Counted from the stretch's first letter, positions 1-8,979 are shown. The stretch: 43,895 bases of DNA from a virus (IMGVR_UViG_2548876954_000009), one strand, 5' to 3'. Translations and numbers: made by a program. The notes: generated from the sequence alone by a model not told the origin.

Positions 1-234
1 ATGAAATCAAAAGACACCCTAAAGTGGTTCCCTGCGCAGCTTCCTGAAGTCAGAATTATCCTGGGAGATGCTGTCGTGGAAGTAGCAAAACAGGGAAGAC
101 CTATCAATACCAGAACATTGCTTGATTACATTGAAGGAAACATAAAGAAAAAGTCATGGCTGGATAACAAAGAATTATTACAAACAGCGATATCAGTTCT
201 TAAAGACAACCAAAATTTAAATGGTAAAGTGTAA
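1..234 (+). CDS. Hypothetical protein, possibly 5'-truncated by window edge
   Basis: 77-codon ORF starting at base 1 with ATG; no recognisable motifs. Confidence 0.25.
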   Translation: MKSKDTLKWFPAQLPEVRIILGDAVVEVAKQGRPINTRTLLDYIEGNIKKKSWLDNKELLQTAISVLKDNQNLNGKV

Positions 235-612
235 TACCTCCCCTGAAAAATAATTTTTCAATGCATTAAAAAATATCAACAACTACGTTATTCCGCAACA
301 ACCTACTTTTTTTACCATTTTTCCACTTTAACAACATTTTGCTCCACTTTTCCACGACCAAACAACTTAAAATCTGGTTAAAATAACATACAACACTATT
401 ATTCGTCTTCCTCGAGTCCGCCCGGAGTTCGAAAAACAAACCGAGTTAAAGCCATTTTTCAAAAAATCGATTTTTGGTTACACCAAAATTACGGGACTGC
501 ATCCGAATTCGTTTATTTTCGAACGTATACATACAAATATGTACAATAATAAGCGAAATAATTTTTGGATATGCATTATGATATGTACACCAATTTCGTA
601 TAGAGTCTCACT

Positions 613-1203
613 ATGTCTCGAATTTTTGCTTACTGTCGGATATCAACGCTGGATCAGCCCCCCGAAAATCAACGCCGGGAAATCGAAAGTGCAGGTTTTA
701 AAATCAAACCTCAGCAAATAATCGAAGAACACATTAGCGGCTCAGCAGCAACCAGTGAGCGTCCTGGTTTTAACCGGTTGCTTGCTCGCCTGAAATGTGG
801 TGATCAATTGATTGTGACAAAACTGGATCGCCTTGGTTGTAATGCAATGGATATCAGGAAAACAGTGGAACAACTGACCGAAACAGGTATCAGAGTGCAT
901 TGCTTAGCATTGGGGGGCATTGACCTGACCAGTCCAACAGGAAAAATGATGATGCAAGTAATTTCAGCAGTCGCTGAATTTGAACGAGACCTTTTACTTG
1001 AACGCACTCATTCCGGGATAGTAAGAGCCCGGGGCGCAGGGAAACGTTTTGGTCGACCACCTGTGTTAAATGAAGAACAGAAACAGGTGGTATTCGAACG
1101 AATTAAGTCAGGTGTAAGTATAAGTGCCATTGCCCGGGAATTCAAAACCTCGCGGCAAACCATTTTAAGAACCAAAGCAAAACTTCAGACACCTGACATA
1201 TAA
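613..1203 (+). CDS. pin: Serine recombinase, Pin/Hin/Gin-family DNA invertase
   Basis: N-terminal catalytic Ser motif YCRISTLDQ, resolvase-type core and C-terminal HTH; 196 aa typical of DNA invertases. Confidence 0.9.
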
Positions 1204-1559
1204 AAAATAATCTCGGTGTGAGATGCTTTACGTCTTCCAAGCCCCCTTCCTTGCCGTAAATGGAAAGATACATCTAATTATAGAATTTATATGTTTTACC
1301 CTACGGCAGTGCTGGCCATTCAATATCCTGTGCAGTTGACGTATCAACACGGTTCAGCAATACCCGATACTTTTTCCAGGCTTCCCGCAATGAAGTCTCT
1401 TCCTCAATTACGATCTGCAGCATCCTGAAGTGGGGCGCACCACGCAAACATCACAAAATATTGTCGTTGTGATGGACCTGTGCAATAGTGAATCACGCTA
1501 CGTTTCTGTGTACAACGTACTGTAGTTTTCTTTACGATTTATAGCTGTACTGGTGAATC

Positions 1560-1889
1560 ATGAGCAATCTGAATCCATGCATGGTGTGTGGTGCCTGCTG
1601 TGCATTTTTCCGCGTCTCTTTTTACTGGGCCGAAGCCGATGATGCTGGCGGTACCATTCCCGCCAGACTCACTGAACAAATATCCCCTTATCATAGATGC
1701 ATGAGCGGTACCAATCAGAAAAACCCAAGATGTATTGCCCTTGCAGGAACCCCGGGAAAAAATGCCTGCTGTACGATATATGAAAATCGACCATCCACGT
1801 GCAGAGAATTCGCCATGTCTGGTGAGAACGGAGAAGTCAATGAGGCTTGCAATCGTGCAAGAGCTAAATATGGGCTGACACCGTTATAA
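1560..1889 (+). CDS. YkgJ-family putative zinc/iron-chelating CxxCxxCC protein (moron)
   Basis: CMVCGACC motif (CxxCxxCC) plus downstream Cys cluster; 109 aa; followed by a terminator. Confidence 0.65.
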
Positions 1890-1907
1890 ATATACAATAA
1901 TTGCACT

Positions 1908-1942
1908 GCCCCGCCAGCTGTAGTTGGCGGGGCTTTGTTTTT
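1908..1942 (+). terminator. Rho-independent terminator after ykgJ-like gene
   Basis: Stem GCCCCGCCA/TGGCGGGGC with 8-nt loop followed by TTTGTTTTT. Confidence 0.65.
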
Positions 1943-2026
1943 CAGGTACAACAAAACCGCTTCTCAGCAGATTTTATTCGGCGGAGCGTCACCCGGTCAT
2001 TCAATACCTGTATCGGTTAATATGAG

Positions 2027-4831
2027 TTATAACCCGGATAACTTCGCTTCAAGCTCCTCAACCCTTTTTGTCAGTTTCTGAATATGGTGAATGAGAGGAA
2101 CAACCAGACGATCATACATCACGCCTTCAGCAACCATCCCGTTCAGGGAAATATCTTCCGGGTCGTCGTCATCTACAGCCTCACGCCAGTGAACATATTG
2201 CGGTGCAATCTCTCCAACTTCTTCCGCAATAAGGCCATAATGCCCCCAGTCCTTTCTGTCCCTTTCACAAGTCGAGCGATACCATACAGGACGCAGTTTC
2301 AACAGTTCGTCCGCGTACCTGTTCTCTAAAGACTCGATATCCGTCTTGTATCGACGTGATGAAGTCGAACGAAATACCATGTTGTAACCAGCAATCGGAC
2401 TTACGAACATGTTAGGACTATCGGTTGTTGTCTGAACATCAAAGATCTGCAGACTGTAACAGCTTAACGTCTGGAATCCTGCATCCAAAGAACCAGACTC
2501 AAGTTTCGTTGACGTAACAAAGTTACGGGTCATCTGGTTTACTTCGGATATGCTGTAAGCGCCGATTTCAAGCGGTGTGGGCAGTTTCTTTGTGTTCAGT
2601 GCACGACGCCATCCGGGGGAATAAGCAGTACCGTTAAACACATAGATAAATTCCGCATTAGTGAGGGCGTCAGAGACACTTGTCGTCGTGGCTGTTGTTA
2701 TTCGAATGGTGTAATGCGTTGCACTGTGACTGAATACTTCTATCACAGCTCCTGCCAGTGGAATAATGCCGCACCCAGTTTCACTGTCTGGTATGGAGGC
2801 GCTGTCAGCGTATGCCCAGGCACAGCGTGCCACCCATGCTTTTGTATTAAATGCACCATTATTCTGCAATATCGTCACTAACTGAGCCGTCGTTATCGAT
2901 GCACCATTACTCCCTGTGCCTAACCAGCCGGTTGGAGATGCAGGGCAACCAATATTCGCCGGTGACAGCGAAATATTAGCCGTTCCGTCAAATGAGACCC
3001 CATTAATGGTGCATGCTGTTTGCAGTTTTGTGGCTGTAGCTGCATTACCATTCAATGAACCAGTTAACCCGCCTGTAACAGACAACGGACCTGAAACTGT
3101 TCCTCCGGTTGTTGGCAGTGCTCCAATATCTGACGGCGTCGGTTTCTGATGTGAACTATACATCGTATAAACAACACCATCGGTAACGCTGGAAGGCTTA
3201 CTCGCTGAATATGTTGGCGAGGTATAAACAGAAACTGACGCATTTGCGGTACAATCCCAATGGATATTTACACTCGTCGCATAATTGCCAGTCTCAACGT
3301 AAATATCATATGTATCGCCGGATGTGTTGTTCCAGGCGAAATTAGTTAATCCGACGGCTGTACGCTTCCACAAAGCCCCGGTAATCCCTTTGGGGTTTCC
3401 ATTGCCTGCTCGTAGAACCAGTTCTGAAATGCCTGCCTGCTGTGGGGAGCCGACGTTGTAACCAGCACCACCAATCAATGCGATGTAAACGATGGAACTC
3501 GCTTGTGGCATTGTAACCGTAGCCAGTTTGAACCATCCTGCCCCGCCAGAGAAAGACATCGTTACTGAATTTAAAGTACCAATATCTTTCGGCGTTAATG
3601 TGATATCCGCAGTCAGTGCTTTCCCGTTAACTTTTCGGTCAGATGGCACCCTGCTGTTCGCATTGTCATTTGCTGCTTTAACTGCCTTTGGCGTTGCGGC
3701 CAGCGATTCACTGGTGCTGTCGACAGCACTGCTAAGTTTCACAACACCTTTAGTGGTAAGGCTTGCGTCCTCCATCGCAACCGCACCGGCAATCTCTTCA
3801 GCACGATTGGCTGCAGCTTGTGCACGCGTTGCAGCGGATTCAGCAGCAGTTTTGCTCTGAGATGCAGCCGTCGCACTACCAGCTGCCTCTGTTGCCTTCG
3901 TGGATGCCGTCGTGGCACTGCCCTTCGCAGCTGACGCCTGCCTGATCGCCTCATCTTTTGAAGCGGACGCCGAGGTAGCTGATGCAGACGCAGAACTTGC
4001 AGATTCAGCAGCTGCCGACTTAGAGGAAGCGGCATTGTCTTCTGAAGTCTTTGCATTTGTTTCAGAGGTTTTTGCTGCCGATGCTGAATCTTTCGCGGCT
4101 GTAGCCTGACTCGTCGCCTCAGTCGCTTTTGCGGTAGCTGTTGTTGCCGATGACGACGCGCTTTCTGCTGATTTTCCGGCGGCGGTGGCACTGGCTGCGG
4201 CATTCGTTTCTGACATTTTTGCCGCACCGGCACTGGTGGCCGCCGCGCTTTTTGAGGACTCTGCAGCGGCAGCACTTTTTGATGCTTCAGTGGCCTTTGC
4301 TGATGCCGTTCCTGCGCTGGAAGACGCTGACTGAGCAGATGATGCAGCCTGTCCGGCTGACGTGCTGGCGGCACGTGCTGAGCCTGCAGCATCGGTTGCA
4401 TGAGTTGCCGCCTCGCTGGCTGATGCACTGGCATCGCTGGCTGATTTTTTCGCGGCTGCCGTATTCTGTGCAACCGCGGAGGCGTTACGCGCCACCTCTT
4501 CCACCATCAGTTCAAAACGGCGCAGTGCCTCCGGACGGGCATCATCCTCCGTCATTGCGCCGAGAAAATCATTCAGCGTACCCGGCTGAGAATCTTCATA
4601 CACGGTGATGGTCCCGGCATGTGACGGCGGGAATCCCTCCACCAACAGGATGACGCTGTACTGACCGTACTCAACGTCCATTGTGTAACGCCCGGCTTCA
4701 TCCGGGTTTTCTGAAGCCACCGTGTTCACCACCACCGTGGTGCTGTTGCGCCTGGCTTTCAGCTGAATGGTGCAGTTCTGTATTGGTTTTCCCGCACCAT
4801 CTTTCAGTACACCTGAAATCTTTACTGCCAT
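2027..4831 (-). CDS. stf: Side tail fibre protein (lambda Stf-like N-terminus, Ala/Ser/Thr-rich repeat stalk, C-terminal intramolecular chaperone/S74-like domain)
   Basis: N-terminus MAVKISGVLKDG... resembles lambda Stf; long A/S/T-rich repeats; C-terminal ...YKTDIESL...GLIAEEVGEIAPQYVHW... resembles auto-cleaving chaperone domains; ATG at 4831 with GGGGTGAG RBS (ORF track start at 4837 is GTG). Confidence 0.85.
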   Translation of the reverse strand: MAVKISGVLKDGAGKPIQNCTIQLKARRNSTTVVVNTVASENPDEAGRYTMDVEYGQYSVILLVEGFPPSHAGTITVYEDSQPGTLNDFLGAMTEDDARPEALRRFELMVEEVARNASAVAQNTAAAKKSASDASASASEAATHATDAAGSARAASTSAGQAASSAQSASSSAGTASAKATEASKSAAAAESSKSAAATSAGAAKMSETNAAASATAAGKSAESASSSATTATAKATEATSQATAAKDSASAAKTSETNAKTSEDNAASSKSAAAESASSASASATSASASKDEAIRQASAAKGSATTASTKATEAAGSATAASQSKTAAESAATRAQAAANRAEEIAGAVAMEDASLTTKGVVKLSSAVDSTSESLAATPKAVKAANDNANSRVPSDRKVNGKALTADITLTPKDIGTLNSVTMSFSGGAGWFKLATVTMPQASSIVYIALIGGAGYNVGSPQQAGISELVLRAGNGNPKGITGALWKRTAVGLTNFAWNNTSGDTYDIYVETGNYATSVNIHWDCTANASVSVYTSPTYSASKPSSVTDGVVYTMYSSHQKPTPSDIGALPTTGGTVSGPLSVTGGLTGSLNGNAATATKLQTACTINGVSFDGTANISLSPANIGCPASPTGWLGTGSNGASITTAQLVTILQNNGAFNTKAWVARCAWAYADSASIPDSETGCGIIPLAGAVIEVFSHSATHYTIRITTATTTSVSDALTNAEFIYVFNGTAYSPGWRRALNTKKLPTPLEIGAYSISEVNQMTRNFVTSTKLESGSLDAGFQTLSCYSLQIFDVQTTTDSPNMFVSPIAGYNMVFRSTSSRRYKTDIESLENRYADELLKLRPVWYRSTCERDRKDWGHYGLIAEEVGEIAPQYVHWREAVDDDDPEDISLNGMVAEGVMYDRLVVPLIHHIQKLTKRVEELEAKLSGL

Positions 4832-4841
4832 ACTCACCCCA

Positions 4842-4869
4842 CAAAAAAGCCCGCCTGAACCTGCGGGCT
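4842..4869 (-). terminator. Rho-independent terminator downstream of lom
   Basis: Stem AGCCCGC/GCGGGCT with 8-nt loop, T-tract on minus strand. Confidence 0.5.
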
Positions 4870-4895
4870 GTCATAACACTGTGTTACCTGGCTAA

Positions 4896-5495
4896 TCAGA
4901 ATTTATAACCGACACCCACGATGAAACCGTCAGTGCGCCAGTCACCACTGCCGGAGCCTTCATAAGCGACATCAACGGCCACGGATTCGGTCGGGTTAAA
5001 CTGCACGCCAGCCCCCCACGCCAGAGACGTGTTACTGTGGCGACCGTCATCACTTCCGGTCAGCACATCGTGCGTTTTCCCCTTGTTGTCAGTTACGCGG
5101 AGATAATCCCCGGAAAAAGCCGACACACGGCTGTAAGCCACACCCGCCATCGCATACGTGCTGAACCATTCATTCACGCGCACAGATGGCCCCGCCATCA
5201 CGCTGAACCAGCGGTTACGAACGGAATCTTCATGCCAGCGGGTATCGCTGTAATGGGTCAGCTGGCGATTCCTGTCTCCTGCATAGCTGAATGACGTCAC
5301 CACCCCCAGTGTGTCCGTAAACTCATAACGGTATTTCACGTTAATCCCGTTAAGCTCATCGCTGCCGGAAACGTTCGTCGGGGCATGAAGATAGCCCGCG
5401 CTCAGCGTGGACTGATGTTCAGACGCCCATGCAGGCGCACCGGATACGGCCAGACAAATGGCTGCGGACAAAATGGCTGCACAAACTTTACGCAT
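4896..5495 (-). CDS. lom: Lom/Ail-family outer membrane beta-barrel protein
   Basis: 199 aa, N-terminal signal peptide, C-terminal GYKF; position immediately after J as in lambda. Confidence 0.9.
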   Translation of the reverse strand: MRKVCAAILSAAICLAVSGAPAWASEHQSTLSAGYLHAPTNVSGSDELNGINVKYRYEFTDTLGVVTSFSYAGDRNRQLTHYSDTRWHEDSVRNRWFSVMAGPSVRVNEWFSTYAMAGVAYSRVSAFSGDYLRVTDNKGKTHDVLTGSDDGRHSNTSLAWGAGVQFNPTESVAVDVAYEGSGSGDWRTDGFIVGVGYKF

Positions 5496-5518
5496 AATTA
5501 CCTCTCGCTTTTCTGCAA

Positions 5519-5543
5519 TAAAAAAGGCGCCATTTCTGGCGCC
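5519..5543 (-). terminator. Rho-independent terminator downstream of J
   Basis: Stem GGCGCCA/TGGCGCC, loop TTTC, T-tract on minus strand. Confidence 0.5.
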
Positions 5544-5565
5544 CGTTATTAGGGTTATAAATATT

Positions 5566-8500
5566 TCAACGGATACTGATGCCGGAAGCCGCTTTTTTGG
5601 TCACAATCACCGTACAGTCGGTGATATTGCCTGCCCCCTGATTCCCTTTCTGGAAAATCTTAAACTCCAGAGTGACGCTTCCCCTGCCACCCGGCATATC
5701 AATAACCGCACTGTAACTACCGGGAATGGCCCCTTTAGTTTCTCTGGATGCGATTAATACGCCGTTTTTGCGAACTTCAAATCCATAACCCGTGTACCTT
5801 GTACCTCCCGGATTATTACCACTTCCCGGATCGGTATACGCTATACCGTTAAAGATAATGGGCGGGATAATAATCTGACGGTCAAAGTTATGATCATCGC
5901 TGATGGTGACTGTAACCGTCCCGTCTGGCGTTTCCGTGTTACCCCACGTACCGACTTTTTTCGGGAAGGCTTTTGATACAGCTTTAACGAAATCCCCTCT
6001 GACCTGGGTCGCCTCCAGCATGCCCTTAATCGTACAGTTCTCACTTATCGTGACATTGTTGAGCGTTCCTGAGTTCGCATTCACGTTACCGCTGATATCA
6101 GCGTTTTTCGCCGTCAGCCGCCCGTCCGGTGTCAGGGAAAATGCCGGAGGATTGCCGCCGCTGGTGATGGTCGGGGCCGTCAGACGCTTCAGGAACACGT
6201 CGTTCATGAATATCTGGTTGCCCTGCGCCACAAACATTGGTCGTGTGTTGCCATTAGACGGATCAATAAACGCAATACGGTTAGCGGCGACCAGAAACTG
6301 GCTCAGTTTGCCTTCCGGCGTGTCCTCCATGCTGAGGCCAAGTCCCGCGACATAATGTTTGCCGTCTTTGGTCTGCTCAATTTTGACGCCCCACATGGCA
6401 TTCCATTTATCACTGGCGTCCTTCCACTCTTTCGAAAACTCCTCCAGTCTGCTGGCGTTATCCTCCGTCAGCTCGACTTTTTCCAGCAGCTCCTTGCCGA
6501 GATGGGATTCGGTTATCTGGCCTTTGAAAAAATCCAGGTAACCTTCCGCATCATCGCTCGCCTGACCGACAGCCTCCACGAATACCGATTTGCCAACGGT
6601 GTTCACACTGCGGATATAAAAGTAGTAATCAGAACCCGGCTTAATATTGATACTGGCGGCTATCCAGTACATCCCCGTGCCAAGATAGCGCGCGCTGGTT
6701 TCAACCTGCCGGATATCGGCAATCCGCTTTTCCGAAAACCAGAACTCAAACTGTACCGTCGGGTCATAAACTGCAAGATGCGGCGTGGCGGTTATCTGAA
6801 AATAGCCCGGCGTCAGCTCAATCTGTGACGGCGCTGCCGGTGCGGCAATCCTGAACGATACCGACGCCGGGTCGCCCTGCTGTCCCCACGCATTTACCGC
6901 CCGGACTGTCAGCCTGTAGTTCCCTGGCGCCAGTTGCGTGAAGCGGTATGTGGTTTCCGTCGTCCTGGCCGTGCTGACCAGCCGCTCACTGCCGTCGTCT
7001 GCTGCCACAGTCAGGCGAAGCATAAAGCTCACCCCCTTCACCACCTTCGGCGTGTCCCAGCGCGCCAGTACCTGATATTCCCCGCTGTCTGCCGAAACTT
7101 CGGCGGTCAGGTGCTGCACCGCTGGCGGCGTGACACCGTTCACCGTGCCGCTCTGGTCGCCGTCAAAGTGCGCCCCGTTATCCACGATGGCTTCTTTTTC
7201 CGGTACATGCTGCACGGCAGTGATGGCATACGTGCCGTCATCGTTCTCACGGATACTCACACAGCGGAACAGGCGCTGGCGCAGCGTCGGCAACTTCAGC
7301 CCCCACACGCTGTATCCGGCAACGCCGTCAGGGATACGGTTCACTTTCACCTGCACGCCGTCGGTGACAGACTGGACCTCCACGCTGACCGGACTCCCCG
7401 TCCCGTCAACCAGGCTTATCAGCGTGGTACCGGAGGATGGCAGCGTGATTTCACGGTCGAGCGTCAGCGTCCGGGTCTGGCTGTTCACCGCCAGTACGCG
7501 CCCGCCGGTGCTGATACCCGCATAGTCATCATCGCAGATTTCAATGACGTCTCCCGGTACATGGCGAAGCCCTTCTGCACCCACGCTGAAATCCACGGTC
7601 TGCGTTTCCAGCAGTTCTGTTTTAATCAGCCACAGCCCGGCGCGGTGTGCCTGCCCCCGGCTGGTACAGCCAAAGGCATCCATCTTCGTGACGTTACGAC
7701 CGTAACGGGCAATGGCCTGCGTGTCCTCCACAAGCTCTGTTGCCGTCTCCCAGCCGTTGTCCGGGTCAATCCAGTTCACCTCAACGGCATTATGGCGGTC
7801 CTTCAGGGCGCTGAAGCTGTAGCGGAACGGCGCGCCATCATCCGGCATCACCACATTACTGCGGTTATAGGTCCACACCTTATCCGATGGCCGGTCCTGC
7901 ACGAACGTCAGCGTCTGCCCGTTCCATACCGGCATACAGCGCATCGCCGAGCAGAAATCACTGAGCACATCCCACGCCTTGCGCTGTGTGGTCAGGTACG
8001 CATTACAGGTGATGCGCGGCTCCGTGCCGCCAGAGCCATCCGGTACCGACTGGTCGCAGTACCGACCGATGGCATACAACGCCCATTTATCAACATCCGC
8101 CGCACCAAGACGTTTCCCCATGCCGTAGCGCGGGTGGGTCAGCATGTCCCACAGACACCAGGCCATGTTGTCGCTGTACGCTGGCCTGAACGTTCCGTCC
8201 CAGATACCGCTGTATTGCCGTGTTTGCGGGTTATAGTTCGACGGCACCTGCAGAATGCGCCCGCGCAGATGATAATTACGGCTCACCTGCTGGCTGCCGA
8301 ACTGCTCAGAGTCCACCTGCACGCCGACCAGTGCCGTGTTCGGGTAGCACTGTTTCACATCGATAATTTCGGTGTATGACGACCAGAGCGTTTTGTTCTG
8401 CAGCTGGTCTGTGGTGCTGTCCGGCGTCATCCTGCGCAGCCGGATATTGAACGGGCGCGGCGGCAGGTTATCCACCACCACCGAGGCCAGATACTGCGAG

Positions 8501-8979
8501 GTGGTTTTGCCCTTAATGGTGATGTCTTTTTCCGTCACCCAGCCACCATTACGTTGTATCTGAACCAGCAGGCGGACTTCCGACGGATTCCGGTCCCCCT
8601 TTGAAGTGGTTTCCACCAGTGCCTGCACACCGAAGGTCAGGCGCAGACGGTCGATGTTTGCCGACGTGATGGTGCGGGTAATCGGCGTGTCGTACTTCAC
8701 TTCCGTACCCAGCACCGTCTCGGAGCCGGAGGATTCAAATCCCTCCGGCGGTGTCTGCTCCTGCTCACCTGCCCGGAACACCACCGTGACACCGGAGATA
8801 TTGGTATTCCCCTCACTGTCCAGCACCGGCGTACTGTTCAGCAGCACGCTTTTTAATCCATCCACCGGACCTTCAATCGGCCCTTCACTGATGGCGTCTA
8901 TCACGCTCAGCAGCTGGGATGATTTCAGGTTGTCCTTCGCTTCGCGCGGGGTATGCCCCTTACTGCTGCCTTTACCCAT
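5566..8979 (-). CDS. J: Tail tip host-specificity protein J (central tail fibre)
   Basis: 1137 aa; N-terminus [20 protein letters not shown]... matches lambda J; fibronectin-like repeats; GAGGA RBS. Confidence 0.95.

Follow-up and report, generated by a model that had tools for sequence, protein, structure and literature searches.

A Pin-type recombinase beside a lambdoid side tail fibre is probably the relic of a Tn3-family transposon

Introduction

The viral sequence IMGVR_UViG_2548876954_000009, whose full 43,895 nucleotides are referred to here as the window, carries at positions 613 to 4,831 a small serine recombinase gene (pin), a ykgJ-family gene and a side tail fibre gene (stf). The initial annotation had read this arrangement as a Pin/Gin/Cin-family invertase turned orphan, accompanied by a YkgJ-like moron and by a tail fibre that carries its own chaperone domain. 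All three genes are present where they had been placed, the stf start at 4831 included. 'Pin-type invertase', however, is a name inherited from annotation and was never a tested property of this protein. We argue here that positions 500-1246 probably represent the right end of a Tn3-family transposon (res, tnpR and right terminal repeat), that Pin is accordingly best viewed as a relic of that element and not as a Din-family invertase, and that the neighbouring fibre module was exchanged separately.

The counterparts of this gene in Escherichia coli K-12 are pinR of the Rac prophage and pinQ of the Qin prophage. Kirigo et al. (Nucleic Acids Research, 2025; PMC12529663) described PinQ and PinR as previously uncharacterised proteins, 38% identical to PinE, with PinR 99% identical to PinQ; their BLAST of genome databases with the Rac and Qin prophage sequences recovered inversions in e14 only. 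Inversion of the e14 P segment creates a chimeric StfE2 and blocks T2 adsorption, a phenotype that needs stfP/stfE, and in a pinE mutant the P segment is locked in one orientation (PMC12529663). P-segment inversion in trans is the only reported activity of PinQ or PinR. Transposon resolvases, res sites and a cysteine at the catalytic arginine go unmentioned in that paper, and our full-text literature search on pinR with Tn3, resolvase and Rac returned nothing making a transposon link.

Results

Gene content of the pin-stf region

The region between the left end of the window and the start of stf comprises the following features, with strand given where one applies.

1-234, plus strand: ydfK/ynaE-like gene, 77 residues (phrog_2718; PF27475 YnaE; labelled cold-shock protein YdfK in RefSeq)
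235-499: AT-rich spacer with no homology to the Tn3-family transposon
500-602, plus strand: degraded res-like region, from BLAST homology to the transposon and the footprint of 21 transposon copies
613-1203, plus strand: pin, small serine recombinase of 196 residues (Pfam Resolvase and HTH_7)
1204-1246: remnant of a right terminal inverted repeat, from its match to the repeat of transposon L086
1301-1436, minus strand: 3' remnant of tfa, the last 39 codons and the stop, from similarity to TfaR
1496-1958, plus strand: block resembling ecpE-ykgJ-yagU, carrying ykgJ and a terminator (91.4% DNA identity to the E. coli chromosome)
1560-1889, plus strand: ykgJ coding sequence, 109 residues (PF03692, CxxCxxCC)
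1908-1943, plus strand: hairpin and T tract resembling an intrinsic terminator, downstream of ykgJ
2027-4831, minus strand: stf, 934-936 residues (phage_tail_N and Peptidase_S74); the open reading frame extends to 4837, with a probable ATG at 4831

Pin (Resolvase domain, E 1.4e-35, plus HTH_7) differs from K-12 PinR at 3 of 196 residues (T16P, T17P and A187T), an identity of 98.5%. With more than 97% identity, a ydfK-pin-tfa neighbourhood and a position at the tail-fibre end of a lambdoid prophage, it belongs to the PinR/PinQ orthologue group. The window shares with both K-12 loci this neighbourhood, the res-like region upstream and the repeat remnant after the stop codon. The ydfK-like gene is a constant companion of prophage pin genes and is absent beside the transposon copies described below.

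Pin is most similar to the resolvase of a Tn3-family transposon

Comparison with PinE, the true e14 invertase, yielded an identity of 37% over 183 residues, versus 83% to P0014, the TnpR of the Tn3-family transposon L086. The Din invertases Gin, Cin, Hin and PinE are roughly 60% or more identical among themselves; inversion by enzymes of this family depends on a Fis-bound enhancer, as a rule located in the 5' part of the invertase gene. In a search of approximately 5.8 billion proteins, the next relatives of Pin, at 75-85% identity, proved widespread on Enterobacterales plasmids, with P0014 the commonest. The P0014 gene lies 160 bp from a divergent 994-residue DUF4158/DDE_Tnp_Tn3 transposase in four of the six loci L086-L091. 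The L086-type transposon is a mobile, compact element of 3.8 kb with the organisation tnpA<-res->tnpR and 53-nt terminal inverted repeats that are 96% complementary, and the copy at L090 is flanked by a 5-bp target duplication. Matches to it occur on 1,802 PLSDB plasmid records, 186 of which hold at least 80% of the transposon in one place. When one genome per species was sampled, a Tn3-family tnpA began 155-161 bp upstream in 24 of 72 relatives, 63-80% identical.

Pin and the Din invertases (Gin of Mu, Cin of P1, Hin, PinE of e14) have in common a small serine recombinase fold, a C-terminal helix-turn-helix, a tail-fibre neighbour and, for the wider Pin/TnpR family, a crossover site of 12-2-12 layout. 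Pin differs from them in sequence (~37% identity), in the absence of flanking 26-bp inverted sites, in its opposite orientation to the fibre genes and in its recognition helix. The latter, TSRQTILR, is of the transposon-resolvase type, not that of Hin or Gin, and the DNA-binding domain as a whole is nearly identical to those of functional transposon enzymes.

One related plasmid locus is of separate interest. In L089 (5860-5911, compared with L086), a colicin/microcin plasmid carries the same tnpR without tnpA; at the left half of res site I its sequence ceases to follow that of the transposon, the pattern that a natural exchange at the crossover site would leave.

Transposon sequences extend beyond both ends of pin

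The window and the transposon form a single BLAST alignment at 533-1242 with 82.6% DNA identity, reaching 80 bp ahead of the start codon and 39 bp past the stop. Directly after the pin stop codon, the stretch 1204-1246 shares 36 of 48 positions with the right terminal repeat of L086. The homology stops precisely at the repeat tip, CCCC(C), which is also where different transposon copies diverge from each other. Only the L086-type transposon was usable for this repeat comparison, since a cross-species downstream alignment revealed passenger DNA after tnpR in other members of the family.

A footprint of res was obtained by aligning the 160-bp intergenic region of 21 transposon copies. Site I of the transposon, TGACCGAAACCG-GT-CGGTTTCGTACA, has a 12-2-12 layout and is followed by a variable 14-bp spacer; site II, TGTCCGAAA-N14-TTTCGTACA, is followed by a 12-bp spacer containing TATAAT, and site III adjoins the start codon. 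The window contains a site I remnant at 500-525 (CATCCGAAT-N8-TTTCGAACG), a 14-bp spacer, site II at 540-571 (TGTACAATA-N14-TTTTGGATA), a 12-bp spacer and site III at 584-602, so that the spacing of subsites equals that of functional transposon copies; the half-sites themselves are conserved in part. The site I remnant has 11 mismatches in 26 positions versus 0-7 (median 0) in transposons, which corresponds to P ~2e-4 against random sequence in the fixed register, and both site II half-sites in the window lack the invariant CG. Relative to K-12 Rac, the res-like part is the most diverged (88.5% identity, with 9 differing positions in site II); the coding sequence is 99% identical and the repeat remnant 100%. 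Because the DNA-binding domain is nearly unchanged, co-evolution of protein and site does not explain the degraded sites. A matrix scan detected no second res-like site I in the window. The initial suggestion that the AT-rich stretch at 235-612 might be the target of Pin is thus borne out in part: its segment 500-602 is homologous to the resolvase's own res, but site I is degraded and has no partner res in the window.

Overall, the window shares with the transposons of L086-L091 its DNA sequence at 82.6% identity, the spacing of three subsites and a terminal repeat directly after the tnpR stop, and differs from them in having no transposase, no left repeat, a degraded site I and a cysteine in place of Arg71. 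A further link between the two kinds of locus is provided by L174 (E. coli CAJVAH010000001.1, 6900-7540), in which flanks of the window-type prophage enclose a tract, from the middle of site II to codon ~180, that is 100% identical to the plasmid transposon. Gene-conversion tracts of this kind give chimeric TnpR/PinR proteins (P0004-P0008) in which Arg76 is restored. The L174 tract shows that the prophage and transposon loci are homologous throughout and still exchange sequence.

The catalytic arginine is replaced by cysteine throughout the prophage lineage

Pin retains Y7, R9, the nucleophile S11 and R73 of the serine-recombinase active site, but not the complete set (Y6, R8, S10, D36, R68 and R71 in Tn3 numbering). 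The equivalent of D36 is glutamate throughout the Pin/TnpR family. In addition, Cys76 of Pin takes, in an unambiguous alignment (KLDRLGC versus KLDRLGR), the place of Arg71 in the gamma-delta and Tn3 resolvases and of the corresponding arginine in Gin. All 80 viral and all 8 genomic prophage copies have this cysteine, as do K-12 PinR and a sister lineage of prophages (P0009, locus L172; 83% identical). Arginine occupies the position in 112 of 120 family clusters and in all 72 non-prophage species loci, and a single CGT to TGT transition accounts for the change. The R71A and R71K variants of Tn3 resolvase no longer recombine and cleave ~1000-fold less, yet retain DNA binding and synapsis (PMC2794168). 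By analogy, we infer that any recombination catalysed by Pin would be weak, as a consequence of Cys76, in the whole prophage lineage.

Two other substitutions were recorded. The Pro-Pro variant produced by T16P/T17P (LDQPPENQ; 658-663, codons 16-17) lies between the equivalents of the catalytic residues Q14 and Q19 and is rare, occurring in 4 of 89 prophage copies, most of which have Thr-Thr. Pin K61 (793-795), present in the window and in K-12 PinR, places lysine at the position of Glu56 of Tn3 resolvase, in the 2-3' interface; engineered hyperactive resolvases include E56K among their mutations. E61K was considered as a lineage marker and dropped, the representative of one large cluster (P0001) having glutamate.

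No invertible segment or crossover sites were detected

The initial annotation reported no paired gix/hix-like sites, and a systematic search agrees with it. The Din-type pattern TTNTCNNAAACCNNGGTTTNNGANAA had no match in the whole 43.9-kb window with up to 3 mismatches allowed. A half-site matrix built from known hix, gix, cix and pix sites, with the two e14 pix sites taken directly from MG1655, reached a best score of 15.6 over the window. Real sites score 27-32, and shuffled sequence reaches up to 19.1. Inverted repeats within 1-6000 were limited to short pairs of 71-88% identity, no better than chance. One pair, 161-179 and 557-575, resembles a gix half-site (TGGATAA); it was rejected, as it misfits the 12-2-12 layout and the segment it encloses is inverted in no genome.

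Population data point the same way. In 2,676 of 5,426 complete E. coli genomes the ydfK-pin-tfa' block (tfa' denoting the tfa remnant) is colinear, at least 80% of it lying in one place. It is likewise colinear in 80 of 80 IMG/VR contigs retrieved via the Pin protein, and no inversion isomer was found among these genomes and contigs. The block is also carried by mEp460, 2H10 and Tritos, which are induced and sequenced phages. Pin has no local invertible segment and, on the origin proposed here, no substrate in cis in this prophage.

The distal tail fibre module has been exchanged

As the initial annotation proposed, the tail fibre carries its own chaperone domain. Stf begins with phage_tail_N (nt 4430-4831) and an Ala/Ser-rich shaft. 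Residues 626-759 (nt 2561-2962, minus strand) resemble the Mu tail fibre S/S' (PDB 8ju3, E 8e-27), a further sign of cross-family fibre mosaicism. The C-terminal S74 chaperone region spans residues 826-936 (nt 2030-2362), within which Peptidase_S74 (PF13884) matches residues 826-882 at 33.7 bits versus a cut-off of 22. S826, at position 1 of the profile, and K831 reproduce the +5 Ser/Lys spacing of the autocleavage dyad, whose residues are those described for endosialidases. Endosialidase-type C-terminal chaperones of the S74 family (MEROPS/Pfam), such as those of the K1F endosialidase and the T5 L-shaped fibre, share with Stf both the location of PF13884 at the extreme C-terminus and the Ser826/Lys831 spacing. 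The domain in the window differs in sitting on a lambdoid Stf N-terminus and a Mu S-like domain, and its self-cleavage is a prediction only. At least 10 PHROG tail-fibre families have extreme C-termini that match the last 140 residues of Stf. An AlphaFold model of the Stf C-terminus computed without an alignment had a predicted local distance difference test score of 38 and was unusable.

The initial annotation also held that there is no separate tfa gene. No intact tfa is indeed present, but a 39-codon 3' remnant persists on the minus strand: over 1304-1420, 34 of 39 residues are identical to residues 153-191 of TfaR, with the stop codon at 1301-1303. The remnant is truncated at its 5' side at ~1436, which coincides with the left joint of a module swap. 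Aligned with the Rac-type locus, the window matches at 1-1436, at 3014-4201 and from 4194 onward, and the interval 1437-3013 is foreign. Where K-12 Rac has the distal half of stfR and tfaR, the window instead has ykgJ and an S74-type tip, with tfa cut to 39 codons. The remnant thus indicates that the original fibre tip and its chaperone were swapped for an S74-type tip and ykgJ. A self-cleaving chaperone, as predicted here, would make tfa dispensable, in keeping with its truncation.

Parts of this region resemble sequences in other prophages. S74-type fibres of other E. coli prophages (L003) share 88% identity with the distal part of stf (2025-3049). Two closely related complete genomes (H35/H36, L002; strains 2022H047 and 2022H048) contain a degraded prophage end that is 96% identical to positions 1314-2103, which take in the tfa remnant, ykgJ and the stf 3' end. 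Among complete E. coli genomes, these two alone have the tfa'-ykgJ-stf' junction (stf' being the stf 3' end). A contiguous pin-tfa'-ykgJ-stf(S74) arrangement was found in no complete E. coli genome and no IMG/VR locus, and the junction 30-mer at 1424-1454 had no match in a search of one genome per species. Many different breakpoints fall at 1405-1436 among viral loci, which marks the conserved tfa 3' end as a recombination hotspot.

A sub-threshold Rfam match to IS009 (1335-1551, minus strand; full model length, E 7e-15, 70 bits versus a gathering score of 117) extends over the remnant of tfa and the upstream region of ykgJ. A second, to isrG (3805-4209, plus strand; 39 bits versus 100), is antisense to stf.

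The ykgJ cassette

A YkgJ-family CxxCxxCC gene with its own terminator does lie between pin and stf. YkgJ matches PF03692 (UPF0153) with E 4.5e-12 and 46.9 bits versus a cut-off of 23, and its N-terminal cluster reads C7-x2-C10-x2-C13-C14. The terminator hairpin (1908-1933) has an 11-bp stem, 9 pairs of which are GC, and is followed by the T tract. The 91.4% DNA identity of the cassette (1496-1958) to the chromosomal ecpE-ykgJ-yagU interval covers the gene with 64 bp upstream and 69 bp downstream, terminator included. The chromosomal ykgJ and the copy in the window differ in location, the latter lying in a prophage between a tfa remnant and stf. On this evidence ykgJ is a moron of host origin that brings its own terminator. 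It belongs to no PHROG or PADLOC family, and no repeats were found flanking it. NCBIfam and PADLOC searches on pin, ykgJ and ydfK returned nothing informative.

In L003 (E. coli CP039404.1), positions 2228-2616 contain a ykgJ-like fragment of 82% DNA identity that is labelled 'ferredoxin' and 'capsid protein'. It is located 2.3 kb past another S74-type stf, so ykgJ-like cargo recurs at this end of such prophages.

Other features of the prophage

The window is filled by a complete lambdoid prophage running from int to ydfK. From the integrase leftward, the order is cI-like repressor, Q antiterminator, head and tail genes, J, lom and the pin region. Three further features fix this frame.

4896-5495, minus strand: lom (Ail/Lom outer-membrane protein), adjoining stf
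5566-8979: J, which with lom marks the tail end of the lambdoid prophage
42672-43895, minus strand: integrase gene, at the right end of the window

Adjoining the integrase, a 339-residue DUF4365 protein (41381-42400, plus strand) falls in no PHROG family and weakly matches the PADLOC entry Aga_REase-PNTD (E 9e-9); it may be a defence moron. At the opposite end of the window, the gap at 235-612 is AT-rich (33-37% GC), and its spacer shows two features of its own. A 62-63 bp indel polymorphism affects 237-299: the stretch is present in the window, in L006-L010 and in L174, and is missing from the K-12 Rac-type allele of most loci. Upstream of the res-like region, positions 459-476 form a near-perfect 18-bp palindrome, CAAAAAATCGATTTTTGG, which K-12 Rac and the sister lineage L172 also have in slightly altered form.

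Discussion

The closer relationship of Pin to TnpR than to PinE, together with the res-like region and right repeat that accompany it, suggests that its place beside the fibre genes is an accident of insertion. The insertion would have taken place 54 bp downstream of tfa, in a phage ancestral to the Rac/Qin-type lambdoid phages, and the transposon would later have lost its transposase, left repeat and usable crossover site. If so, Pin would never have controlled this tail fibre. It would be an orphan because it is the relic of a transposon, not an invertase whose segment was lost, and an invertible segment would not be expected. In a separate exchange, the distal fibre module would have been swapped by recombination, with crossovers at ~3014, inside stf, and at ~1436, where the tfa 3' end is conserved. 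This would have replaced the old fibre tip and tfa by a tip with a C-terminal S74 chaperone and predicted self-cleavage at S826, and the host ykgJ cassette with its own terminator would have arrived along with that tip.

Several observations weigh against a transposon origin or against an impaired enzyme. Searches of the window and the Rac flanks with the transposase (tblastn) and the terminal repeat (BLAST) found neither a tnpA fragment nor a left repeat, so the transposon is reconstructed from one end only. By a strict matrix the site I remnant scores no better than shuffled sequence, and its homology depends on its register to sites II and III. The sequence of Pin scores 102 bits against Gin and 81 bits against gamma-delta or Tn3 resolvase, and its best sequence match in the PDB is Gin; with the invertase-like 12-2-12 layout of the family site I, this places the TnpR clade near the invertases. 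Nor is the gene simply decaying, as the reading frame is intact in 19 of 19 distinct prophage pin coding sequences. The ratio of non-synonymous to synonymous substitution rates (dN/dS) between the window and the sister cysteine lineage is 0.42 (25 synonymous and 37 non-synonymous changes), below neutrality at P ~0.001 by our own binomial estimate on the counts; the sister lineage was used because differences within the Rac-type lineage are too few to inform. Against the transposon gene dN/dS is 0.17-0.19, a stronger constraint. The name of the transposon is provisional: it probably belongs to the Tn5403 group of passenger-less Tn3-family elements, an unverified assignment that draws on the annotation string 'Tn5403-pinR' in a plasmid paper (PMC13253593). 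Finally, overproduction of PinQ lifts inversion of the e14 P segment in trans from ~30% to 88% (PMC12529663), which is hard to square with a severe catalytic defect.

How far do these data favour an invertase? Pin adjoins stf and tfa genes as Din invertases do, and PHROG 125 and many records call it 'DNA invertase', and its best PDB match is Gin. A Din-family (Pin/Gin/Cin) enzyme that lost its fibre segment, or that inverts an unrecognised local target such as 235-612, is nevertheless highly improbable and already largely refuted. Identity to PinE is only 37%, no 26-bp Din site exists in 43.9 kb and no isomers occur in the 2,676 genomes or 80 contigs. Moreover, it is the 3' end of pin, not the 5' end, that faces the fibre genes, a transposon terminal repeat lies between them, and the nearest relatives are transposon resolvases accompanied by tnpA. 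The initial premise of an orphaned invertase is not supported, in view of an 83% match to TnpR with res-like region and right repeat kept. Action in cis as a resolvase is the next least probable alternative, and we consider it unlikely: Pin would act on its own res (500-602) to resolve circular phage-genome dimers or recombine with a second res elsewhere, in a prophage or plasmid. The res-like layout directly upstream, the almost unchanged DNA-binding domain and the natural site I exchange on plasmids (L089) speak for such activity, but it would have to proceed with Cys76, from a site I with 11 of 26 mismatches against a median of 0 and site II half-sites lacking CG, in the most diverged part of the locus (88.5%), and with no second res-like site in the window.

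The remaining alternatives concern what Pin does now, whatever its origin. It is possible, though tentatively so, that Pin is a trans-acting invertase that flips an e14-type P segment elsewhere in the host and thereby serves the anti-phage function of chimeric StfE2. The PinQ overproduction data, the need for stfP/stfE and the 99% identity of PinR and PinQ (PMC12529663) agree with this proposal, as does purifying selection on the Cys76 lineage. By inspection, the family half-site TGTCCGAAACC and the pix half-site TCTCCCAAACC match at 9 of 11 positions, which makes cross-binding somewhat plausible, but the half-site cores are 2 bp closer in pix than in the family site I. Furthermore, the locked P segment of the pinE mutant implies that native PinQ and PinR alone do not invert it (PMC12529663), cysteine at Arg71 predicts a ~1000-fold catalytic loss, the recognition helix TSRQTILR is that of a transposon resolvase and not of Hin/Gin, and the window holds no P segment or pix-like site. 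A domesticated, non-catalytic DNA-binding protein, acting as a repressor or architectural factor at sites II/III and possibly elsewhere, would account for purifying selection despite Cys76, and has a rather low probability in our estimation. R71 mutants of Tn3 resolvase do keep binding and synapsis (PMC2794168), family sites II/III overlap the TATAAT box as autoregulation would predict, and the dN/dS of 0.42 and intact frames fit a retained function; on the other side, the 9 site II differences between the window and K-12 Rac argue against a conserved operator, and no consensus promoter was found upstream of pin.

With a transposon origin, then, Pin would act, if at all, either in trans on the e14 P segment, as published, or by binding DNA at its own accessory sites, which overlap its promoter. 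Weak or absent catalysis combined with one of these two roles is the most likely present activity. A more specific proposal, which we put forward tentatively, is that PinR and PinQ are domesticated Tn3-family (Tn5403-like, the name unverified) resolvases that lost the transposon and crossover site, had cysteine fixed at Arg71 and nonetheless stayed under purifying selection, with very weak or non-canonical catalysis on foreign, pix-like sites or DNA binding only. If this were true, PinE would be needed for the reported inversion in e14, or the effect would be indirect.

The pin gene was already known. Around it, known modules are combined in a new way, and the novelty of the transposon origin and of the Cys76 observation is modest. 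For the phage, these results indicate no hidden tail-fibre switch in the window, its gene order being an ordinary mosaic of transposon relic, swapped fibre tip and host-derived moron. For the family, 'Pin' invertase labels on Rac/Qin-type prophages mislead, because they raise the expectation of invertible segments where there are none. The exchange seen in L174 documents ongoing gene conversion from a plasmid transposon to a chromosomal prophage gene. PinR/PinQ-type proteins occur in approximately half of E. coli genomes and have lately been promoted as the first 'recombinase-activated' anti-phage system, and both the transposon origin and the cysteine at the catalytic arginine bear on how the model of PinQ trans-inversion and defence (PMC12529663) is tested.

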